NCBI GenBank assembly: GCA_022824265.1
Contig: JAJEAG010000051.1
Location: 12,818 to 76,817, forward strand
DNA: 64,000 nt
Origin: Candidatus Poribacteria bacterium
GTDB lineage: Bacteria > Poribacteria > WGA-4E > WGA-3G
Reading direction: 5' to 3'
Below the pieces are notes generated by a model that did no database searches, had not been told where the DNA came from, and worked only from the letters and a program-made list of their open reading frames with translations. This document shows positions 3,558 to 14,314 of the stretch, in pieces. The position numbers were made by a program, and so were the translations under genes. Position 1 is the first letter of the stretch. Each line of letters starts with the position of its first letter.

Positions 3558-4601
3558 TCAATAACAGTGGACAACAAATATCCTTCCCCGTTTTCCACCT
3601 ACATTGATTCCCACCTGCTGTCTCGTTTTCATTGTTTTCTGCTGTTTGAGTACCTTGTTTAAATGGGACGGCTGCATGGAAAGCAGGACGATTCTTCCAC
3701 CGGGCTTTGTAACTCTTTCAAATTCAGTGAGGACCTTTCTGTATAGTTGTGGTAGGTTAGACTTGTTTTCGTCTATAGGGAGGTTGCATGCGATTTTGTC
3801 TACAGAATTGGTTTGTATAGGTAAAGATTGTGCGTCCCAGTGAAAAAACTGACGTGGTTGGTGCTGCCTTCCGAAATTCTTCTTGGTTGCATCTACTGCT
3901 ATTTTAGATATGTCTCCACCGATAAGGTAGCGATAACGACCGGAAAAGGCACGTTCCAGCAGAATAGTTCCCGCACCACACATTGGATCTAAAAAAATGT
4001 CGTTGGGTTGCGGTTGTGATAGTCTCACCATACTGGACGCTATCGTTGGTTTAAGCGTATGAGGAACACTTGTTTGCTTGTAAGTACGTTGAGCCATGTC
4101 AGGTTTGGAAAGCCGAATGCTGATATATGCATCCTCACCATGCATCTCTGCCCACACATCTATTCCCGAACCTGACCGTGTCAATTGCCAACCGCGGTCA
4201 ATCAAACTTCTTTCAATGATCTGTTGAAAATCCCGTTTTTGAAAATTGCGGAAACCCGACATCCTTGTCATCACACGAAACTGAATTCGTTTCCGCATTT
4301 TGATACCTACTTGCCGACAACCTGCTAACATTTCCTTGAAGTTAAACCGACTGAGTGAATTCTTTATAGTAGTTAAAGAACTACGTGAACGCGTCATATT
4401 TGGAAAATGTTTTATCACAAGGAATATTTGTTCCGCTGTGCGTAGTGCTAATAAATCTTTCGGACTACCAGAATATTGGAAAACAATCCGTTGCGGTTTT
4501 CGCAGTATAATCTTGAATTGTTTAGTATCACCGAAACGAGAATTGATTTCTTGACGTGCAATGTTCTCCAATCCCGCAGTGACAGATATTGAATATATCA
4601 T
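3558..4601 (-). CDS. THUMP-domain class I SAM-dependent RNA methyltransferase (RlmL/Trm11-like N2-G or N6-A methyltransferase)
   Basis: SAM-binding motif I DPMCGAGTILLE, a downstream CNLPID motif-IV-like segment, and an N-terminal region typical of THUMP/UPF0020 proteins. Confidence 0.65.
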   Translation of the reverse strand: MIYSISVTAGLENIARQEINSRFGDTKQFKIILRKPQRIVFQYSGSPKDLLALRTAEQIFLVIKHFPNMTRSRSSLTTIKNSLSRFNFKEMLAGCRQVGIKMRKRIQFRVMTRMSGFRNFQKRDFQQIIERSLIDRGWQLTRSGSGIDVWAEMHGEDAYISIRLSKPDMAQRTYKQTSVPHTLKPTIASSMVRLSQPQPNDIFLDPMCGAGTILLERAFSGRYRYLIGGDISKIAVDATKKNFGRQHQPRQFFHWDAQSLPIQTNSVDKIACNLPIDENKSNLPQLYRKVLTEFERVTKPGGRIVLLSMQPSHLNKVLKQQKTMKTRQQVGINVGGKRGRIFVVHCY

Positions 4602-4611
4602 TTTTATCCTT

Positions 4612-6867
4612 TTAGGGTTGTTGCCAATTTAGGTGTCGATGCAGAAATTGGAATGTTTTATCTGAATTGATTTGATGTCCACCATCAAAGAATTCAATCT
4701 CAGTTTTATCTGCTATCCCCAGACGGACATAAAGACGACGAACTCTCGCGAATTCGTGTGCAACCCATTCATCTGGTGCCACTCCGTCATCATGACCGCG
4801 TTCAACCATGAATGGTCGCGGTGCGATTAACCCTGCCATTTCGGCATAGTTGAAAGTGTTTCCTAAATCAAACTCAGGCATCTCATATTCCCCTGTGAAC
4901 ATATAACTATACTGTGAATCAAAAGTTGCATTTTTCACAATCCACTCGTTGAAATCTGCTGAACAGATGGAACATGCGTATTGTTCAAGGACTGCTGGCA
5001 CTCTCATCGCTGTTTTTCCGCCATAAGATAATCCATAAAAGCCGAGACGATCTTCATCAACGAAAGGTAGTTCTGCTAACCAGTCAAGTGTGCGTTCATG
5101 CTGCCGGATAATCAACGAAAAGAGCGACCATTTTATAGGATTTGCTTTCCTTTGGATGACGCGAAAAGCATCTTGACCAATATACGGGTTCTGTGGTGCG
5201 TAGGTGATAAAACCCCTATCTGCCAACTGTGCAGCGTAGGAGTGATAAACAGAATTTATGTTAGGATCAGCAGTATCCTGCGGTCTACCCTCTAATCCAT
5301 GTTGACATACAACAACTGGTCGTTTCTCATCCGGTTCAATGTCATTTGGGAGTAGCAAAATCCCATAAGCAAAAACATCCTTCCACACATCAAGCGTGAC
5401 TTCATAGCCAGTCCATTTAGGTTCGTCATATATAAGACGGGTTTTCGGATTGGCAGGAACATCAGGTGCGGGACACCGACCTATTACCTCATCCCAAAAA
5501 TAGGATTTGGCATTTTCACATGTCTCTTCCCATTTCGCAAGCGAAGAGGTATCTGTCTTGTTCCAGAAGAACTCCTGCCTTCGCGTTTCCGCTTCCCTTA
5601 AAAACCGTTGTGTCAGATTGACGAGTTGCATAAACTGCCGCTGTTGACGTGCATCGTGGTCGTCCGTTTCAGTAGTTTGTATGGAAAGTGGCTGGTTATT
5701 ACCATTACGCGGATTATCAATACCGAGACTCGTCAGAAAGGTTGTTACTGTTTCTTCAGAACCGGGTAAACGATTTTCAGGGGTAATTAGATGGATATTA
5801 TCTTCGTAACCAAGTTCTTGGAATACAGAGCATGCCTGATTATATTCACTTTCTGCTGATTTAACGGGCGGTGAGACAAGTTGTCCAGGGGCAGCACCAC
5901 CTCGACCATCACGGGCATTGGGAGGTCCCATTACCTCAGGACCTCGACTTGTTTCAATGATTAACGGACGCGGGGCAATGAGACTCGCAATTTCTGCATC
6001 ACCGAATTCGTGAAGCAATCCCCATACATTACGATAAATTGGTTCACGCCATACCTCTTCACGCGCTTGAAAATATCCGCTGACCACCGTAGCCTGAATT
6101 CGTGTGTCTACAGCAGCACTGTAAAGGGCAATCAAACCCCCTTCACCATAGCCTATAACACCGATGGGTTTATTATCAGATGTCATCCAATCTACGAGTG
6201 ATAAGACCTTCTGAACCTCATACCCGATGATATGTCTTCCCAATTGATATGCCATACGGTAGATAAATTCACGATGTGGTTGATTGGTAAATCTTCCGAT
6301 TTTCGAGTTGCCAGAATATGTGTCGTCACGATTTATGGGTAGCGGCACGACAACACGCATTCCTGCCGCTGCTAAAGTGCGCGCAAACTGCGCGGAAGGT
6401 GGAAGTTCATCTGTCACACCAGCAATCATTTCTGGTGTCCAATCTGCATCTGGAAAAGCGACAACTTGTGCGACAATTTGTGATGTGTCATCAGGTTCTA
6501 ATAGCAGCCCTTCACCTTCTACCTCATCAAAAACCTGCCACCGAACACGCGATACTGTAAAATTCTGACCTGTTGCAATTTGTGCAGCGGATTTTGTTGT
6601 TCCATGATAGGAAAGTACGTCTATCGGTAGACGTTCATCGTAACACCCAATCTGCTTTATGAAACGTTGTCTGTTCGGTTCAACAGATTCGGTATATGCC
6701 ATATTTGAACTATAATCCCGATTCCACAATGTTTTGCGTTTTTCTGCTGCGATCTTTATGGCACGAGATACATAGTTATCAAGGTCTTCAACCATTTGTG
6801 CAGCGAGGTCACCTTCAAAGGTTAGGTTGTCGGTGCCCGTTAATACTTGATCGGGTTTTTTGGACAT
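4612..6867 (-). CDS. Two-domain alpha/beta-hydrolase protein (dienelactone hydrolase / acetyl-xylan-esterase-like), cytoplasmic
   Basis: Two GxSxG-type nucleophile elbows (VIGYGEGG and FYGLSYGG), each in a hydrolase-like segment. No signal peptide. Confidence 0.55.
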   Translation of the reverse strand: MSKKPDQVLTGTDNLTFEGDLAAQMVEDLDNYVSRAIKIAAEKRKTLWNRDYSSNMAYTESVEPNRQRFIKQIGCYDERLPIDVLSYHGTTKSAAQIATGQNFTVSRVRWQVFDEVEGEGLLLEPDDTSQIVAQVVAFPDADWTPEMIAGVTDELPPSAQFARTLAAAGMRVVVPLPINRDDTYSGNSKIGRFTNQPHREFIYRMAYQLGRHIIGYEVQKVLSLVDWMTSDNKPIGVIGYGEGGLIALYSAAVDTRIQATVVSGYFQAREEVWREPIYRNVWGLLHEFGDAEIASLIAPRPLIIETSRGPEVMGPPNARDGRGGAAPGQLVSPPVKSAESEYNQACSVFQELGYEDNIHLITPENRLPGSEETVTTFLTSLGIDNPRNGNNQPLSIQTTETDDHDARQQRQFMQLVNLTQRFLREAETRRQEFFWNKTDTSSLAKWEETCENAKSYFWDEVIGRCPAPDVPANPKTRLIYDEPKWTGYEVTLDVWKDVFAYGILLLPNDIEPDEKRPVVVCQHGLEGRPQDTADPNINSVYHSYAAQLADRGFITYAPQNPYIGQDAFRVIQRKANPIKWSLFSLIIRQHERTLDWLAELPFVDEDRLGFYGLSYGGKTAMRVPAVLEQYACSICSADFNEWIVKNATFDSQYSYMFTGEYEMPEFDLGNTFNYAEMAGLIAPRPFMVERGHDDGVAPDEWVAHEFARVRRLYVRLGIADKTEIEFFDGGHQINSDKTFQFLHRHLNWQQP

Positions 6868-6922
6868 AATTTTTCGTTGCTCCTGTGCAACCTTGCTCAG
6901 ACAAGAATGTGCTTCTACAAGG

Positions 6923-8110
6923 TTATATTATTCCTTTTTCTTTCAACTGTTTTACTTCATCAGGTGAAATGTCCAACAATTTTGTCAATACTTCATACGT
7001 ATGTTCTCCAAGACTTGGTGCGGGAGCATCCACATTTCCAGGAGAATCAGAGAGTTTAATCGGTAATCCGGGCACTTCAACCGCACCTGTTATTTCGTGC
7101 ATCACTTTAGTAATCATATCCCGTGCTTGAACCTGTGGGTGATTCACTACCTTATCAATTGTGTTAATCGGACCACACGGTACTCCAATCTTTTCAAGGG
7201 ATTCTATCCATTTTTCCGTTTTTCGTTGACGCATGATCTCTGAGAGTATAGGAAACAAATCGCTGTGATTTTCAGTTCGGTCTGCGTTAGTTTTGAACCG
7301 TTGATCGTAGATAAGATGTTTATGGTTTACGTGTTCACAAAATTTTGCCCACAATGTATCGTTACCAATCGCAATAATAATGTGTCCATCCGCGGATTCA
7401 TATATTTCAAAAGGTGTGATTGCTGGATGCCGACTCCCAAGGGGTTGTGGGATTTTATCTGTTGCAAAATAACGGACAATTGCATTCTCCAATACTGCCA
7501 CAAGACTATCCAACATTGCTACATCCACTAACTGTCCTTTTCCTGTATTGTTTCGGTGGTGTAGTGCCGACATGATACCTATAGTGGTGAAGAGTGCTGC
7601 TGTAATATCGCTAATAGATGTGCCGACACGTACAGGAGATGCATCAGGTTCACCTGTAATACTGATAATACCACCCATGCCTTGAATTATCATGTCGTAA
7701 GCACCTTTCGTAGCATAGGGACCTGTCTGTCCAAAACCAGAACAGGAGGCATAAATCAGAGATGGACATTCAACTTTTAATGTCTCGTAATCCAAGCCAA
7801 GTTTTTCCATCGTTCCTGGTCGAAAATTTTCTACCAATATGTCGCTCTGTTTGACAAGTTGTTTGAATATCTGGATACCACGTTCAGTTTTTAGATTAAG
7901 TGTCACGCTCTGTTTGCCACGATTCACGCTCATAAAGTAGAGACTAAATCCGTTCTTGAACGGACCAAATCGTCTGGATTCATCCCCGGATTCAGGTTGT
8001 TCAATTTTGATGACTTCTGCACCGAGGTCACTTAGTATCATCGTTGCATAAGGTCCTGCCAGTACTCTTGTTAAATCCAATACCTTTATTCCTGTCAATG
8101 GTCCTGGCAT
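6923..8110 (-). CDS. CoA transferase family III (CaiB/BaiF family)
   Basis: N-terminal signature PGPLTGIKVLDLTRVLAGPYATMILSDLGAEVIKIE. Confidence 0.85.
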   Translation of the reverse strand: MPGPLTGIKVLDLTRVLAGPYATMILSDLGAEVIKIEQPESGDESRRFGPFKNGFSLYFMSVNRGKQSVTLNLKTERGIQIFKQLVKQSDILVENFRPGTMEKLGLDYETLKVECPSLIYASCSGFGQTGPYATKGAYDMIIQGMGGIISITGEPDASPVRVGTSISDITAALFTTIGIMSALHHRNNTGKGQLVDVAMLDSLVAVLENAIVRYFATDKIPQPLGSRHPAITPFEIYESADGHIIIAIGNDTLWAKFCEHVNHKHLIYDQRFKTNADRTENHSDLFPILSEIMRQRKTEKWIESLEKIGVPCGPINTIDKVVNHPQVQARDMITKVMHEITGAVEVPGLPIKLSDSPGNVDAPAPSLGEHTYEVLTKLLDISPDEVKQLKEKGII

Positions 8111-8249: not shown

Positions 8250-9326
8250 ATGGATAAACTAAAAATCGCACATATCGGGACAGGTAACCGTGGAACCAAT
8301 ACATATCTACCACTTATCAGTAAATTGTCGGAGGATATGGAACTTGTTGCTGTATGTGATGTACACGAAGGAAGGGTTGCAGAGCAGGGAGAAAAGTATA
8401 GTGTCCCCGCTTTTACGGACACCGCTGAGATGTTAGAAAAGGCAAAACCGGATATATGTTCTATTGTCATTACACCCAGTAATAACCACATCCCAGGCAA
8501 CATTTGTTCTGAACATGGCGTTAGTTATTGCACGGAAACACCTATAAATACTGATCTTAGTCGCGCTGATACGATGATTGAGATAGCCAAAGAACACGGC
8601 ACAAAATTGGAAGTGAATGAGAACTATTACCGCCGTCCGTCTGAACGGATAAAACGCCAGATGATTCTTGAGGGGATATTCGGAAAGGTTAATGTTGCTC
8701 ACAATGATTTTCGTGGACACGGATATCACGGTATTGGTTTAATCCGAAGTTACGTTGGTTTTGATAATGAACCTGTCAAGATTTATGGGTTCAGTAATAG
8801 GTTTAAGGTTCAGGAACATGAGTGGAGAAAGGGACAACCGAGACGTAAGAATGAAGATTGGCAGCATGCAGTTATTGAGTTTGCTGATGGTGCAGTCGGG
8901 ATTTTCAACTTCTCCAGTCTGTCTTACGGATCACCGTTGCGCGGATTTAATGGAACGAAATTCTATGCGGAACGTGGTATGTGTTTCAGAGACGATGCGG
9001 TTATTCTAAATGATAACGCAGATGAACAACGTCCAGTGACGATTACACGCAAGACGAACAATGTAGATGGATATGAAACGCTTGCTGCACTTATTGCTGA
9101 TACTAACCCGCAAGTAGTTTGGGAAAATCCGTTGCACTATTATCCACTTAGTGATGGTGAAATCACCGTTGCATCTGAATTAATGAGTCTTGTAAATGCT
9201 GTGCGTAACGATACAGAACCAGAATACGGTGCATACAACGGACGAAAAGACCGAGAAATTGATGTTGCAATGGGACGTTCAATTAAAAATAACGGTGCCG
9301 CTGTTGACTTTCCATTGGAATACTAA
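8250..9326 (+). CDS. Gfo/Idh/MocA family oxidoreductase
   Basis: Rossmann motif IAHIGTGNRGTNTY and the family's length; GGAAGGAG ribosome-binding site. Confidence 0.8.
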   Translation: MDKLKIAHIGTGNRGTNTYLPLISKLSEDMELVAVCDVHEGRVAEQGEKYSVPAFTDTAEMLEKAKPDICSIVITPSNNHIPGNICSEHGVSYCTETPINTDLSRADTMIEIAKEHGTKLEVNENYYRRPSERIKRQMILEGIFGKVNVAHNDFRGHGYHGIGLIRSYVGFDNEPVKIYGFSNRFKVQEHEWRKGQPRRKNEDWQHAVIEFADGAVGIFNFSSLSYGSPLRGFNGTKFYAERGMCFRDDAVILNDNADEQRPVTITRKTNNVDGYETLAALIADTNPQVVWENPLHYYPLSDGEITVASELMSLVNAVRNDTEPEYGAYNGRKDREIDVAMGRSIKNNGAAVDFPLEY

Positions 9327-9339
9327 TCAATGGTTATAC

Positions 9340-9375
9340 CGTAGGTCGGTGTGAGCATAGCGACCTACCGATTTT
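9340..9375 (+). terminator. Rho-independent terminator candidate after the Gfo/Idh gene
   Basis: CGTAGGTCGgtgtgagcataCGACCTACCG stem-loop followed by ATTTTTCAG. Confidence 0.55.
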
Positions 9376-9484
9376 TCAGATGCTAATCAAAGTCAATATA
9401 ATGTCTTTCAGTATAGTTGTTCATAACAATTTCCTTGTTATCGGCAGAACGTTAGTGTATACTAAAAGTCATGTATAAACAATA

Positions 9485-10393
9485 ATGGAGGACAATAAAG
9501 TGTTTAAATTTAACCGAACAATTTTCACATTCCTGCTTGTATTTGGTTTGACTGCTACGTTGATGGGTAATGAATGGGCTGACTACTACTTTCCAGACAA
9601 AATCGGAAGTTCATGGGTTTATGTAAATGAAGATGGAGACGAAATAACCCGTACTGCTGTTGAGGGAGAAGAGGTCGACGGAACGACGTATCGCGCCTTT
9701 ACTTATGAACCTGCAATAGATGATTGGGAAAAATATCAGTATGTTATTCATCCTTATCTGTATCAAGTCGGTGAAGAATGGATTACATTTCTTGTTGGCG
9801 ATGAAATAGAACAAGCAACCAAGTCTATCCTTGAGAAAAAACTTAATGAAACAATTGCACTCATGCAGGAACAGATTGCTGGACAACTACCTCCAGGAAT
9901 TACAATTGATTTTGATTTTGATGTTGACCCGCAAGCCCAAGATTTATTCTATCTATTTCCACTTCCGATTACCTATAATGAAGAATGGGTCGCAATGCAT
10001 TTGGACATAACAGTAGATATGACAATGGATATTCAAGGAGCACCTGCTGAACTTCCTGCAGAACTTCAAACAATTACTTCTACTACGAGTATTGAGGAAA
10101 CAGGGGTTATTTTAGGAACAGAAACTGTTGAGACTGAAGCCGGAACCTTTGATGACTGTTTAATAATTGAATATAAAACTAAAACAACAACGGATACAGA
10201 TTTACCCCCAGAATATAAACAAATGATACCAGAAACGCCAACCAACGAGGCAACGACAACGTTATGGTTAGCTCCTAATGTCGGTATTGTCAAATTCAGA
10301 AGTGAAAATGAGAATAGCGATGATGTAGCTACCTTGGAATTAACAAGTTATGAGATCATATCTGATGAATCTGATGAGGAAGAAAAAGAATAA
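9485..10393 (+). CDS. Secreted acidic hypothetical protein, paralog A. The true start is probably the GTG at 9503.
   Basis: Signal-peptide-like FKFNRTIFTFLLVFGLTATLMG, a GGAGG box 11 nt before the GTG at 9503, and an acidic C-terminal tail SDESDEEEKE. Confidence 0.6.
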   Translation: MEDNKVFKFNRTIFTFLLVFGLTATLMGNEWADYYFPDKIGSSWVYVNEDGDEITRTAVEGEEVDGTTYRAFTYEPAIDDWEKYQYVIHPYLYQVGEEWITFLVGDEIEQATKSILEKKLNETIALMQEQIAGQLPPGITIDFDFDVDPQAQDLFYLFPLPITYNEEWVAMHLDITVDMTMDIQGAPAELPAELQTITSTTSIEETGVILGTETVETEAGTFDDCLIIEYKTKTTTDTDLPPEYKQMIPETPTNEATTTLWLAPNVGIVKFRSENENSDDVATLELTSYEIISDESDEEEKE

Positions 10394-10448
10394 TTACTTG
10401 GTTTGCTGAATCTTCTGGATATAAATACAATCTTTTAAGGATAACTAC

Positions 10449-11426
10449 ATGTATAAAAGAACTTGTTTTGTTACTACAATCTTTCTTGTCCTATTTTTGT
10501 GTACAGCACTACGAGGGAATGAAACTTTACAACTTTATTTTCCAAGCACTGTAGGAAGTTTTTGGGTCTATGCAGATCAAGATGGGAATGAGTTCGTGCG
10601 TCATGCAATCGAAGGTGAAGAAATAGACGGTACGGTTTATAACGCATTCAGTTATAACCCTGAATTGGAAGATTGGGTTGATTTTAACCGTCATACAGTG
10701 CCATATCTGTATAATGTAAATGATGAGTGGATTAGTTTATTAGTCGGTGAGGAAATAGAAAACGCTGTTCATGCACGTCTCACCAAAGAATTTGAAACTT
10801 TCTCTGCATTGGTAAAGAATTTATTTGCGAATCTGATTCCGCCTGAAGAGAATGTTACCGTTGACTTTCTATATGATATAGAGGTTGATGCAGATGAACA
10901 TTTCAATTTTTTGCCAGCAGATGCATCTATTGATGATGAATGGGAAACCGTTGAGATAACTGCTACAGTCACCATGTCGTTTGAATTTCATGGTTTACCT
11001 GAGGAATTAGCAGCAGCAGCACCTCCGATACCCCCTGTCACAGCGACTTTTTCTATTCTTGAAACAGGGATAATCCTTGATACAGAAACAGTTGAGACTG
11101 CTGCTGGCACATTTGAAGATTGTTTAAAAATAGAATATCGTACTGAGACCGAACTCACAGCTGACCAACAAGAGGACCCTGAACCTGATAACCCACCCGG
11201 TGAAACAGTTACAACATTATGGTTAGCACCTAATATCGGTATTGTGAAGTATCATCAAGAAGCACAAAAGATGTTTCTTAATGTAATGTCTGACAAAGAA
11301 TTTGCTGAGGCATCAGTACCTGCGGAAGAAGCAGCCGAGATAACTGCTACAACAATCAAGTCATTTGAATTATCAAATTACGAGATTGCCTCTGATCCCG
11401 CACAAGAAGAGGATAGGATCGAATAA
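10449..11426 (+). CDS. Secreted acidic hypothetical protein, paralog B
   Basis: Signal peptide MYKRTCFVTTIFLVLFLCTALRG. Shares motifs YFP..GS.WVY, EGEE.DGT.Y.AF.Y.P, ETG.IL.TETVET.AGTF.DCL.IEY and TTLWLAPN.GIVK with paralog A. Confidence 0.6.
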   Translation: MYKRTCFVTTIFLVLFLCTALRGNETLQLYFPSTVGSFWVYADQDGNEFVRHAIEGEEIDGTVYNAFSYNPELEDWVDFNRHTVPYLYNVNDEWISLLVGEEIENAVHARLTKEFETFSALVKNLFANLIPPEENVTVDFLYDIEVDADEHFNFLPADASIDDEWETVEITATVTMSFEFHGLPEELAAAAPPIPPVTATFSILETGIILDTETVETAAGTFEDCLKIEYRTETELTADQQEDPEPDNPPGETVTTLWLAPNIGIVKYHQEAQKMFLNVMSDKEFAEASVPAEEAAEITATTIKSFELSNYEIASDPAQEEDRIE

Positions 11427-11460
11427 ACTAAACAACCTAATCGAACGCATCGGAGATTGA

Positions 11461-12438
11461 ATGAGCGTTTTCCCTATATATCGTCCCAGACGATTACGTT
11501 CAAATGAAAACCTAAGACGACTCGTCCGAGAAACACATCTGTCTGTAGATGACCTTATATATCCGATGTTTGTTGTTCATGGACAGGACACTGCAAATGA
11601 GATTACTTCCATGCCGGGATGCTACCAATACTCGGTGGATAGACTCGTAGAGGCTGCGAAAGAACTTGTTTCGCTTGGTATTCCTGGAACTATCCTTTTC
11701 GGAATTCCTGAGAATAAAGACTCACACGGTTCTGAAGCATACGCGGATGATGGAATTATTCAACAAGCAGTTCGTGCCATAAAAGATACAGTGCCAGACC
11801 TACTTGTAATCACAGATGTTTGTCTATGTGAATACACCGATCATGGACATTGTGGTATCATTGAAGATGGAGAGGTGCAGAACGATCCAACGCTTGATCT
11901 GCTTGTTCAAGAGAGCGTGTCGCATGCACAGGCAGGGGCAGATGTTATCGCGCCATCAGACATGATGGATGGACGTGTCGGTGCAATTCGATATGCCTTA
12001 GACGAGGAAGGATATGAGAACATTCCAATAATGGCATACTCAGCGAAATATGCGTCTGCATTTTATGGACCCTTTCGTGATGCCGCAGAGTCCGCACCGC
12101 AATTTGGTGATCGTCGTTCGTATCAGATGGATCCAGCAAACTCAGAGGAGGCATTAAGAGAAGTAACGCTTGATATTGAGGAGGGTGCTGATATCGTAAT
12201 GGTGAAACCTGCACTCTCATATCTTGATGTTATAAGTCAAGTGAAAGCAGAATTTCAGATGCCTGTTGCAGCCTATAACGTCAGTGGTGAATATTCCATG
12301 ATAAAAGCAGCCTCACAAAATGGGTGGATTGATGAAAAACGTGTTGCTTTGGAGGTCCTAACGAGTATTAAACGTGCTGGTGCAGACATAATCTTGACTT
12401 ACTTTGCAAAGTCGGTTGTTGAATGGCTTGAGAATTAG
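11461..12438 (+). CDS. hemB: Porphobilinogen synthase (delta-aminolevulinic acid dehydratase)
   Basis: Characteristic N-terminus [20 protein letters not shown], active-site region, and about 325 aa length. Confidence 0.93.
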
Positions 12439-12504
12439 GGTGAGGAATACAGTTTACATCTTAGGTCGGGTTTGCTTTGTTCTGCGTATAAGTATCTACA
12501 AATG

Positions 12505-12575
12505 GAAGTGATGCGTTTGTAGTGGTGCAATTTATTACCAAGTCAACACCAAATGCGAGTATAGCGTTGATTCAC
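12505..12575. repeat. Divergent partial copy of the dispersed intergenic repeat core (see 21531..21790)
   Basis: GCGTTTGTAGTGGTGCAATTTATTACCAAGTCAACACCAAATGCG is roughly 75% identical to the core AACGCGTTTGTAGTCGCGCAATTCATTGCCAAATCAACGCCAAATGCGC. Confidence 0.45.
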
Positions 12576-12749
12576 TGGTCACGACCCGTGGAGTACCTAG
12601 CGCGTATTCGATGTTGATTAGGCTATAGTAAAGAATAAACCAAGCGAGTCGAAATATTTATTTTATAGTAAATTTCGTAATTACTTGGACACTTTGGTAG
12701 GTTCGGTTTCCTATCCTGAAACAGTGCGTCAGACACTAAAAAAAATGTC

Positions 12750-13124
12750 TTGAAACCGCATCTTCGTGAACAATGGGTGATCCCCCCTTCCGAAGATGCT
12801 GCATTTGTGAATGCGATGGAGCAAGTGCCTGATCTTTATCAGAAACCTTTAGATACGGATGTTCCTGTTGTGAACATGGATGAACAATCTGTAACGCTAA
12901 GGGATCACCTGCGTGCTCCACGACCTGCTAAACCGGGTCAAGTAGAACGCGTGGATTCTGAATACAGACGCAATGGCACAGCATCAGTTTTTCTTTTCAC
13001 AGAGACCCTTTTTGAATTTCGGTATGTGTCTGTTCGGGAGCGTCGGACTGCGGTGGATTGGACAGAGGAGGTAAAGGTGCTATTGGAGGATGTGTATCCG
13101 AAGGCAAAGCGTGTGATTTTATAG
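12750..13124 (+). pseudogene. IS630-family transposase fragment (DDE_3 / ISAzo13-like type), central part
   Basis: LKPHLREQWVIPP and DSEYRRNGTASVF motifs; ends ...AKRVIL. The upstream region contains frameshifted continuation. Confidence 0.7.
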
Positions 13125-13168
13125 TGACATTTAGAATTATTGATACATTTTTTATTTTTTGTTAGAAT

Positions 13169-13429
13169 ATGTTTCCCATGGCATATTCACCCGATGGACG
13201 AAAACGCATTTTAGATTATGTTGCAGCTGGCGGGAAAAAATCTGAAGCATCCCGTCTGTTTTCCGTCGCACGCTCAACTATTGATAGGTGGTTAGCAGCT
13301 GAGAACCCGTTTGCAATTAGAAAAACAGGACCCAAAAAAATGAGAGTGATTGATGAGGAGGCAATCAGAAAACATGTTGCTGATTTCCCCGACTTAACAC
13401 AAAAAGAACGTGCTGCACATTATCATTAG
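13169..13429 (+). pseudogene. IS630/Tc1-type transposase N-terminal HTH fragment (classical ISY100-like type)
   Basis: AYSPDGRKRILDYVAAGGKKSEASRLFSVARSTIDRWL resembles ISY100-type N-termini. Truncated after about 86 aa. Confidence 0.6.
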
Positions 13430-13975
13430 CTAATCCGTGGACAGGTAAGGAAATGTCCGCTGTCCAAATAGAATTGCTGTAAATCGCGGAGATCTACTAT
13501 GTGCTGGTTATGGATAATTCTCGTCATCATAGTGAACATAGTCATAAACTGGACTCTGATAATTACAACGCCGGAGGGCTGGCTTATAGGAGTGATTGCT
13601 ATAATTGTCATAATTCTCATCATATCTTATAGAATAAATAGAAACTATTGACTATCTATTTCCGTGTCCTCCCCTTATCCTGGGGCACCACGCATTCGTT
13701 TCAGCGATATGCAGCACACGTTCTAAAAATAATACGTCGCCTTATACAACTTGCCCGATCAGCTGAGTCAATCTCCCGCAGTGCATCAACGAAAATCCTG
13801 TTTACCGCATTAACCTGATTGAAATCCGTGATATTGCCATACCTCGTAAAATGAAATTGGTACTATAGTTGACATTGAAATTAAAGAGACACATTTCTAT
13901 AGGAGTGATCTCCGAATCGCGACAAAACTCACTGATAGTCAGGGATCGGAGTTTCCTCCTACAACTCAAAATGTC

Positions 13976-14314
13976 TTGTTAATTCTAAAGTTCACTATAG
14001 TATGTGATAACCTAAATACACACACCCTTTCATCCTTGTATAAAGCATTTCCTGAGGCAGAAGCACAAAGATTGTGTGCTCGTTTGGAAATCGTGTATAC
14101 GCCTAAACACGGCAGTTGGTTGAATATTGCGGAGATAGAACTGAGTGTGCTAACACGACAGTGTTTGTGTCGGCGTATTCCCGATATAGAAACATTACAA
14201 AGAGAGACGCAGGCGTGGCAAAAACGACGAAATGCAGAGCAAAAGCAAGTAGATTGGCAATGGACCATGGCAGATGCGCGCATCAGATTAAAACATTTAT
14301 ACCCAAAAGATTAG
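13976..14314 (+). pseudogene. IS630-family transposase C-terminal DDE fragment, continuation of 12750..13124
   Basis: VCDNLNTHT and TPKHGSWLNIAEIELSVL motifs. Reading ...KRVIL then VCDNLNTH gives a contiguous transposase, interrupted here by an 850-bp insert. Confidence 0.7.

Follow-up and report, generated by a model that had tools for sequence, protein, structure and literature searches.

The window analysed here, a 64,000-nucleotide stretch of a Candidatus Poribacteria contig (GenBank JAJEAG010000051.1), carries immediately before hemB two adjacent genes for acidic proteins with signal-like N-termini. The question raised by this locus is to what family such a pair belongs, and what it might do beside a housekeeping haem gene. 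To the first part the answer is plain, as the two genes represent a lineage-specific form of a family already catalogued, one without known function. New here are the assignment of family and fold, the definition of a module by natural fusions, the fusion contexts found in the wider superfamily, arrays of 1 to 8 copies that occupy a fixed genomic slot, and a conserved overlap with hemB; taken as a finding, this is a refined annotation and a gene-family expansion, and no new mechanism is revealed.

Two paralogs of a catalogued beta-barrel family

Both genes lie on the forward strand, gene A at 9485..10393 (302 aa from ATG 9485) and gene B at 10449..11426 (325 aa), and each encodes a DUF3108-like putative exported protein, A of the A-type (first-in-array) and B of the B-type (second-in-array). 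The tandem same-strand pair of 302 and 325 aa described in the original prediction is borne out, the products being 41% identical over their full length (BLASTP, E 2e-79), and A and B alike contain its four shared motifs, YFPxxxGSxWVY, EGEExDGTxYxAFxYxP, ETGxILxTETVETxAGTFxDCLxIEY and TTLWLAPNxGIVK. Also confirmed are the Asp/Glu-rich C-terminal tails (SDESDEEEKE in A, SDPAQEEDRIE in B) and the position before hemB, the next gene (delta-aminolevulinate dehydratase; 11461..12438, forward strand; PF00490 ALAD, E 6e-160), which begins 34 nt 3' of B. The same prediction noted conserved Cys and Trp positions; the tryptophans W44, W168 and W261 are indeed kept (at least 98%), but just one mature-domain cysteine is conserved, C225, whose codon lies at 10157..10159 in A (forward strand; motif AGTFxDCL, at least 98% of 223 domains) and at 11121..11123 in B (forward strand; an invariant alignment column).

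Judged by its sequence context, GTG 9500 is a more likely start for gene A than ATG 9485, because a GGAGG at 9487-9491 stands before it with a spacer of 8 nt and because most homologs of A are 297 aa long, the length that this start gives; SD-like sequences precede the start codons of A and B. The composition of the two proteins is extreme, with net charges of -47 (A) and -50 (B), 20-21% D+E and ~5% K+R. Of the 42 ORFs in the window that reach 200 aa they are the two most acidic, and the median pI across the family is 4.16.

The family had not been recognised in the original prediction, a view that no longer holds, since both proteins pass the curated gathering score of PF21347 (DUF3108_like; 27 bits), A at 33.5 bits (E 4.9e-8) and B at 28.5 bits (E 1.7e-6), with the profile aligned over positions 137-190 of 199 only and the middle region divergent or containing an insertion. 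A precomputed PF21347 match is present in nearly all of the 120 homologs listed. The related profile PF11306 (DUF3108) gives A a weak C-terminal match of 15 bits (E 0.023), below its gathering score of 26 bits, and B no match, and members of that family, proteobacterial envelope proteins, are described as having the same general fold (PMC4364669). In a profile search of the PDB the matches were 3fzx (E 0.0012) and 4fvs (E 0.0059), both solved members of PF21347, with which the N-terminal motif aligns weakly in phmmer/hmmsearch (YFPSTVGSFWVY vs FFPQTEGTVWV); a single-sequence search of the PDB returned nothing significant for A and for B a weak match to 4fvs (E 0.067). Scans of A and B against NCBIfam, PADLOC and PHROGs gave no matches, and the idea that they derive from a defence system or a phage was given up on that account.

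AlphaFold2 models built from a 46-sequence alignment (A: pLDDT 82.3, pTM 0.77; B: pLDDT 84.9, pTM 0.79) have the fold of 4fvs and 3fzx, and share a topology consisting of an N-terminal helix, which corresponds to the hydrophobic segment, ~14 beta strands, one long helix (residues 105-132 in A, 100-129 in B) and a disordered tail, to which B adds a helical insertion at ~aa 274-300. A and B thus belong to the catalogued DUF3108-like family and their fold is a beta barrel. The profile and structure comparison that the original prediction had proposed as a check therefore yields a match to a catalogued family, albeit one whose function is not known. As a separate matter, the idea that the long helix forms an amphipathic lid was abandoned, its hydrophobic moment relative to shuffled sequences being unsupportive (p 0.40 for A, p 0.05 for B).

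The two solved structures, BDI_3050 of Parabacteroides distasonis (4fvs) and BF2203 of Bacteroides fragilis (3fzx), share with A and B the AGTFxDCL motif and its conserved cysteine. They differ in being ~215 aa long, one of them annotated as a lipoprotein, whereas the modules of A and B are ~270 aa, have no lipobox, and hold ~45-60 additional residues, including a 28-aa helix, between the shared N- and C-terminal motifs. Further differences from the Bacteroidales members are the extreme negative charge, the acidic tails, and the occurrence of 1-8 tandem or fused modules beside hemB. Lipocalins resemble A and B as small exported beta-barrel binders (export of A and B being predicted), but A and B do not have the eight-stranded closed antiparallel barrel of ~160-180 aa that defines a lipocalin.

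A modular architecture with a predicted signal peptide

The sole strongly hydrophobic stretch in A and in B, by hydropathy, is the first ~28 residues. In A this signal-peptide-like N-terminus (aa 1-28; 9485..9568, forward strand) consists of a K/R n-region followed by ~17 hydrophobic residues, ending in TATLMG before NEW, with a maximum KD15 of 2.23 against at most 0.91 in the rest of the protein; in B (aa 1-23; 10449..10517, forward strand) it ends in CTALRG before NET, and the maximum KD15 of 2.58 falls at residue 7. Family N-termini follow the pattern M-x-K-K/R, then ~17-20 hydrophobic residues ending L-x-[GA], then [ND]E, and by inspection and hydropathy have the features of a type I signal peptide (basic n-region, h-region, small residues at -1/-3). 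No conserved Cys was found at the end of the h-region among the family N-termini, and so the segment looks like a type I signal peptide and not a lipobox; lipoprotein status of A and B was ruled out on the same ground. The signal peptides claimed in the original prediction are in this sense upheld, as signal-like segments that internal fused domains lack, and A and B are probably exported via a cleavable Sec-type signal peptide.

The limits of the module are drawn by relatives in which it has been fused to itself. Other Poribacteria have two, three or four domain copies in single ORFs of 581-1139 aa, a four-domain example being found at 8935-12354 of locus L015, and such fusions are included among the top matches in a 1.84-billion-protein library. 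In these relatives the hydrophobic segment is present on the first copy only, internal copies start at HMM positions 21-29 (NExxxYFP), HMM positions 21/28-296 recur as a unit, and acidic, Pro-rich linkers, the counterparts of the acidic tails in A and B, connect the domains. This architecture defines an autonomous ~270-aa module, with the tail as its linker. On AlphaFold2 secondary structure and pLDDT, the beta-barrel module of A, with its one long helix, extends over aa 29-292 (9569..10360, forward strand), and is followed by the acidic disordered tail (10361..10390, forward strand; pLDDT <50 over residues 295-302) that occupies the linker position in the L015 ORF; the acidic tail of B is ASDPAQEEDRIE (11388..11423, forward strand; pLDDT <50 over residues 319-325).

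Conservation across 223 domains is concentrated at A residues 39-58, 209-228 and 259-268, the parts common to the Bacteroidales structures. Conserved in at least 98% of these domains are P37, W44, Y46, E53, R56, F72, Y74, P76, W168, E213, G220, F222, C225, T259, W261, A263, G267 and L286, and Y35, Y46, Y74 and C225 are each found in 90-100%. Variation is greatest in the second half of the helix and in segments 169-198 and 239-258, and indels are concentrated after residues 138, 191, 247, 276 and 281.

A variable array in a fixed slot before hemB

Upstream of A is a gene for a GFO/IDH/MocA-type oxidoreductase (8250..9326, forward strand; PF01408, E 2e-16), 3' of which a hairpin followed by a U-run (9341..9376, forward strand; fold -16.6 kcal/mol, z -1.9) suggests that A opens a transcription unit. 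The hairpin, which was not called by a consensus terminator scan, may be a terminator, in which case gene A would start a new unit. In the 34-nt gap between B and hemB the terminator scan called none, and A and B are probably co-transcribed with hemB. A promoter scan found 14 candidates vs 15.2 expected, which is chance level, so that no promoter is claimed, and an Rfam scan of 9200-11600 found no riboswitch upstream, a sub-threshold snoRNA match alone being treated as chance.

A search of 5.8 billion proteins returned 429 homologs at E <= 1e-3, of which all the named ones come from Candidatus Poribacteria, and a GTDB genome scan gave 79 loci, 77 titled Poribacteria and 2 'uncultured bacterium'; the named genomes are MAGs from sponge and coral metagenomes. 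The original suggestion of a binding-protein, lipocalin-like or inhibitor family specific to this lineage is therefore supported in part, in that every named member of the subfamily comes from Poribacteria but the proteins are not lipocalins. Order within the slot, as determined by tblastn of the window proteins against the 79 loci, is oxidoreductase (71/79), family, hemB (70/79), which substantiates the co-occurrence with hemB that had been proposed as a check. The exceptions are loci cut by ends, one clade without the oxidoreductase gene within 6 kb, and two solo copies (L041 and L059), which lie elsewhere in genomes that carry the array too and are not near hem genes.

In relatives the association with hemB is closer than in the window. 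Measurement was possible at 68 loci, and at 63 of these the last family copy and hemB overlap at stop and start codon, the overlap being 4 nt at 53 loci and 1 nt at 10. Downstream of hemB, 63 loci continue with a hemL-like aminotransferase, a polyprenyl synthase, a NAD_binding_7/sirohaem-synthase-like gene and Cytochrom_C_asm, and the family thus heads a hem-type cluster. The window is without these post-hemB genes and has IS630-family fragments in their place (12442..14314; DDE_3 and HTH_Tnp_IS630), collinearity with locus L001, which is 94-96% identical, ending at 12441, 3 nt past the hemB stop.

The number of domains in the slot varies widely. Across 80 loci including the window there is 1 in 28, 2 in 18, 3 in 11, 4 in 9, 5 in 3, 6 in 3, 7 in 7 and 8 in 1, some of these counts being lower bounds where loci run off the fetched DNA. 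Domains are present as separate genes or as fusions of 2-4 domains with a single signal-like segment, and their order follows a pattern, with the A-type first, the B-type usually second, then a middle type that has expanded and is often fused, and, beside hemB, a final type. The window, L001, L022 and L080 have the A-type and B-type only.

All Poribacteria loci are close kin, hemB being at least 81% and the oxidoreductase at least 76% identical. Median identity to the window proteins is 80% for the oxidoreductase and 85% for hemB, as compared to 50% for the best A-like copy and 41% for the best B-like copy, and the family therefore diverges much faster than the genes that flank it. Against close relatives, A and B are under purifying selection. 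Relative to L080, dN/dS is 0.20 for A and 0.15 for B, vs 0.04 for hemB, 0.05 for the oxidoreductase and 0.10-0.11 for CoA-transferase and S9 hydrolase genes; relative to L001 the corresponding values are 0.10, 0.07, 0.07, 0.04 and 0.10-0.14. Whole-gene positive selection was rejected, dN/dS being at most 0.22, and values of 0.07-0.20 show that A and B are not chance ORFs.

Possible functions and the wider superfamily

The explanation that we prefer, with confidence that is about even, is that A and B are Sec-exported, soluble, polyanionic and non-enzymatic binding modules of the DUF3108-like fold, co-expressed with hemB and amplified and fused in this lineage. As paralogous members of a subfamily confined to Poribacteria within the DUF3108-like beta-barrel superfamily (PF21347, YmcC-like fold), they would be freed of a cleaved Sec-type signal peptide and released to the periplasm or cell surface, each there forming a soluble, strongly polyanionic ~270-aa module with a short disordered acidic tail. 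The module would serve as a non-enzymatic binding unit, its invariant barrel core made up of an N-terminal hairpin (YFPxxxGSxWxY) and C-terminal hairpins (ETVETxAGTFxDCLxIEY and WLAPNxGIVK), and its variable helix and indel-rich loops might tune which ligand is bound. A hydrophobic or amphipathic small molecule would be the most plausible ligand, by analogy with LolA, RseB, LppX and lipovitellin, the nearest functionally known folds and the sole source of this ligand class. The unit that A and B appear to open would run into hemB, so that both are probably expressed constitutively with the haem pathway, and tandem duplication, loss and in-frame fusion, yielding 1 to 8 modules, would vary dosage and specificity in the lineage. 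LolA, LolB, RseB, MucB, LppX, LprG and the lipovitellin/ApoB barrel are hydrophobic-ligand carriers that have no sequence-profile match to A and B, searches of Pfam and NCBIfam at E <= 1 giving no LolA-clan family for either protein, and porins and autotransporter barrels score as well as LolA-type folds.

Proteins of the DUF3108 family are envelope beta-barrel proteins of the YmcC fold with no known function (PMC4364669; PMC6424457), and one relative, GfcB/YmcC, is a lipoprotein of the outer membrane that has GfcC and GfcD as binding partners (PMC8592465). A and B might accordingly be read as GfcB/YmcC-like scaffolds, that is, envelope adaptors whose targets would be partner proteins or the machinery of polysaccharide export instead of a small ligand, but we consider this unlikely. 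YmcC/GfcB (PDB 2in5), encoded in the E. coli group 4 capsule operon, is acylated and acts in a GfcB-GfcC-GfcD complex, whereas A and B have only 11-12% identity to it, no lipobox Cys at +1, and, as neighbours, an oxidoreductase and hemB in place of gfc, yjb or capsule genes. Moreover, up to eight fast-diverging modules have no obvious stoichiometric partner. The literature on DUF3108 and YmcC/GfcB yielded no functional study of the family to which A and B belong.

A role for the proteins in carrying or chaperoning haem, porphyrin or corrinoid in the periplasm, whether hemophore-like or as a supply to cytochrome c maturation, is a proposal we regard as distinctly unlikely; it would account for the translational coupling between the ancestral copy and hemB in a hem/cytochrome-assembly cluster. 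It draws on the hemB overlap and on the genes that continue the cluster, both described above, as well as on the tyrosines Y35, Y46 and Y74 and on C225, which could be axial ligands; the linkage of DUF3108 genes to the B12-dependent metH in some Burkholderiales genera (PMC4364669) is a lead only, and the PF11306 context there, which includes DUF3567 and metH, differs from that of A and B. Against it, the loci are closely related, and the oxidoreductase, CoA-transferase and S9 hydrolase genes are equally syntenic, which makes conserved adjacency to hemB weak evidence. ALAD is cytoplasmic, while the family is predicted to be exported, and the solo copies, like the more distant full-length paralogs P0148 and P0166, which have no adjoining hem genes, lie away from any such cluster. 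Nor does the family contain a conserved His or a CXXCH motif, haem-related Foldseek matches are non-significant (E > 0.09), and, as noted, no riboswitch was found upstream. The fuller version, in which sponge-symbiont Poribacteria amplified a hemB-coupled ancestral gene for a periplasmic tetrapyrrole binder into arrays and polyproteins with as many as 8 modules, is very unlikely, but if true it would assign a function to the DUF3108-like superfamily for the first time and would mean that an uncultured symbiont phylum has a hemophore or haem-buffer system of a new kind.

Alternatively, charge itself (net -47 to -53) could be the main property of an envelope or host-interface protein, a reading that seems very doubtful to us; the proteins would then buffer cations (Ca2+/Mg2+) or form a coat that repels or masks in the sponge mesohyl, in an amount set by copy number. 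The composition and low pI reported above fit this reading, as do the acidic disordered linkers, the variable copy number, the divergence that is fast relative to the flanks, and the sponge and coral origin of the named genomes. However, specific aromatic and polar core residues and a defined fold are conserved beyond what a charge carrier needs, the dN/dS values give no sign of whole-gene diversifying selection, and no Ca-binding motif family was matched by A or B in Pfam. Finally, the view that A and B are non-functional, whether chance ORFs, pseudogenes or untranslated, is effectively refuted by the 429 homologs, conservation across 79 loci, purifying selection, confident AlphaFold2 models and SD-like sequences before both starts.

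DUF3108 and DUF3108-like proteins are widespread envelope proteins for which two structures have been solved and no function is known. For their study the Poribacteria subfamily provides an unusual handle, namely a fixed locus coupled to a housekeeping haem gene, and this translational coupling implies that the family is probably strongly and constitutively expressed. Further handles are natural variation from 1 to 8 modules, fusions that mark module boundaries, and relatives in BlaR1-like transducers and ECF sigma factors. A ligand, if found, would annotate hundreds of hypothetical proteins, and might shed light on what is carried or sensed in the envelope of uncultivated sponge symbionts.

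In the wider superfamily, a profile search recovered 405 cluster representatives at E <= 1e-3, 46 of them at E <= 1e-30, the more distant ones matching chiefly through the N-terminal motif and the last third. Several of these representatives place the module in larger proteins. In P0197, P0210, P0217 and P0226 it follows ECF sigma-factor domains, with or without TPR and with no TM segment, and in P0233, P0255 and P0188 it is associated with Peptidase_M61 or CarboxypepD_reg domains behind signal-like N-termini. The ECF-sigma fusions were considered as proof of an extracytoplasmic sensor role, a notion rejected because those proteins lack a TM segment. Thus, the multidomain contexts sampled point to a portable, non-catalytic module of regulatory and envelope proteins that is not intrinsically extracytoplasmic. 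P0146 is a BlaR1-like Peptidase_M56 protein with LRR and ExbD regions in which the module makes up the C-terminal part, after the transmembrane region, and its gene adjoins that of a Penicillinase_R repressor.

The hemB-proximal array and its flanks in the window

The annotated ATG of gene A at position 9485 is probably not the true start of the gene. A GTG at position 9500 lies 8 nt downstream of a GGAGG sequence (9487-9491), and initiation at this codon would give a protein of 297 amino acids, the usual length of its homologs. Farther upstream, a GC-rich hairpin followed by a U-run (9341-9376; -16.6 kcal/mol, z -1.9) lies 3' of the GFO/IDH/MocA-type oxidoreductase gene and may act as a divider between that gene and the A-B-hemB unit; the hairpin was not called by the consensus terminator scan because of its loop size. 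Beyond the oxidoreductase gene, on the strand opposite to the array, is a block (3558-8110) consisting of genes for a UPF0020/RMKL-like methyltransferase (3558-4601), a 751-amino-acid double alpha/beta-hydrolase with DLH and Peptidase_S9 domains (4612-6867), and a family III CoA-transferase (6923-8110), all on the minus strand. This block and the array are syntenic in one Poribacteria clade only, represented by loci L001-L015, L022, L036 and L056.

The window departs from L001, a related locus that is 94-96% identical, between A and B and after hemB. The 55-nt spacer between A and B (10394-10448) is about 105 nt shorter than its counterpart in this near-identical locus (L001 6943-7048), and the blastn alignment of the two is interrupted at this point. 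Collinearity then stops 3 nt beyond the hemB stop codon, marking a synteny breakpoint immediately 3' of hemB (12442-14314). In 63 relatives, hemB is followed by hemL-like, polyprenyl synthase, sirohaem-synthase-like and Cytochrom_C_asm genes, none of which is found anywhere in the window. Their place is occupied by scrambled fragments of the IS630 family, namely the N-terminal part of DDE_3 (12750-13124), HTH_Tnp_IS630 (13169-13429) and the C-terminal part of DDE_3 (13976-14314).

Fused and solo copies in other Poribacteria

Polyproteins of 872-1139 amino acids, each with a single signal segment, are encoded in other Poribacteria by in-frame fusions of three or four domain copies (L015 8935-12354, L008 8922-11615, L004 8940-11567, L014 9742-12384, L023 6887-9616, L036 8949-11567 and L056 8898-11531). 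The internal repeats are near-identical and are joined by acidic, proline-rich linkers, which suggests that the polyproteins arose by recent intragenic duplication. Solo A-type copies also occur (L041 6001-6927 and L059 6001-6915), with 50-51% identity to A and neither the oxidoreductase gene nor hemB as a neighbour; both genomes (OZ244616.1 and CBDANF010000003.1) possess the main array as well, at another site.

DUF3108-like modules in larger proteins

A full-length, Poribacteria-type module forms the C-terminus of P0146 (L084 3929-8675), a 1450-amino-acid BlaR1-like Peptidase_M56 membrane protein that also carries LRR repeats and ExbD-like regions. Its gene is directly 3' of a gene for a Penicillinase_R (BlaI-type) repressor, and adjoins two C-type-lectin-domain genes. 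A different arrangement is found in five proteins of the representative library (P0197, P0200, P0210, P0217 and P0226; 825-963 amino acids), where N-terminal ECF sigma-factor domains are followed by TPR-like regions and at least two DUF3108-like modules. They look like cytoplasmic sigma factors that carry a DUF3108-like extension at the C-terminus. In four of the five, no hydrophobic stretch reaches the TM cut-off; the sole stretch that does so in P0200 (KD19 1.64) lies within a DUF3108-like module near the C-terminus.
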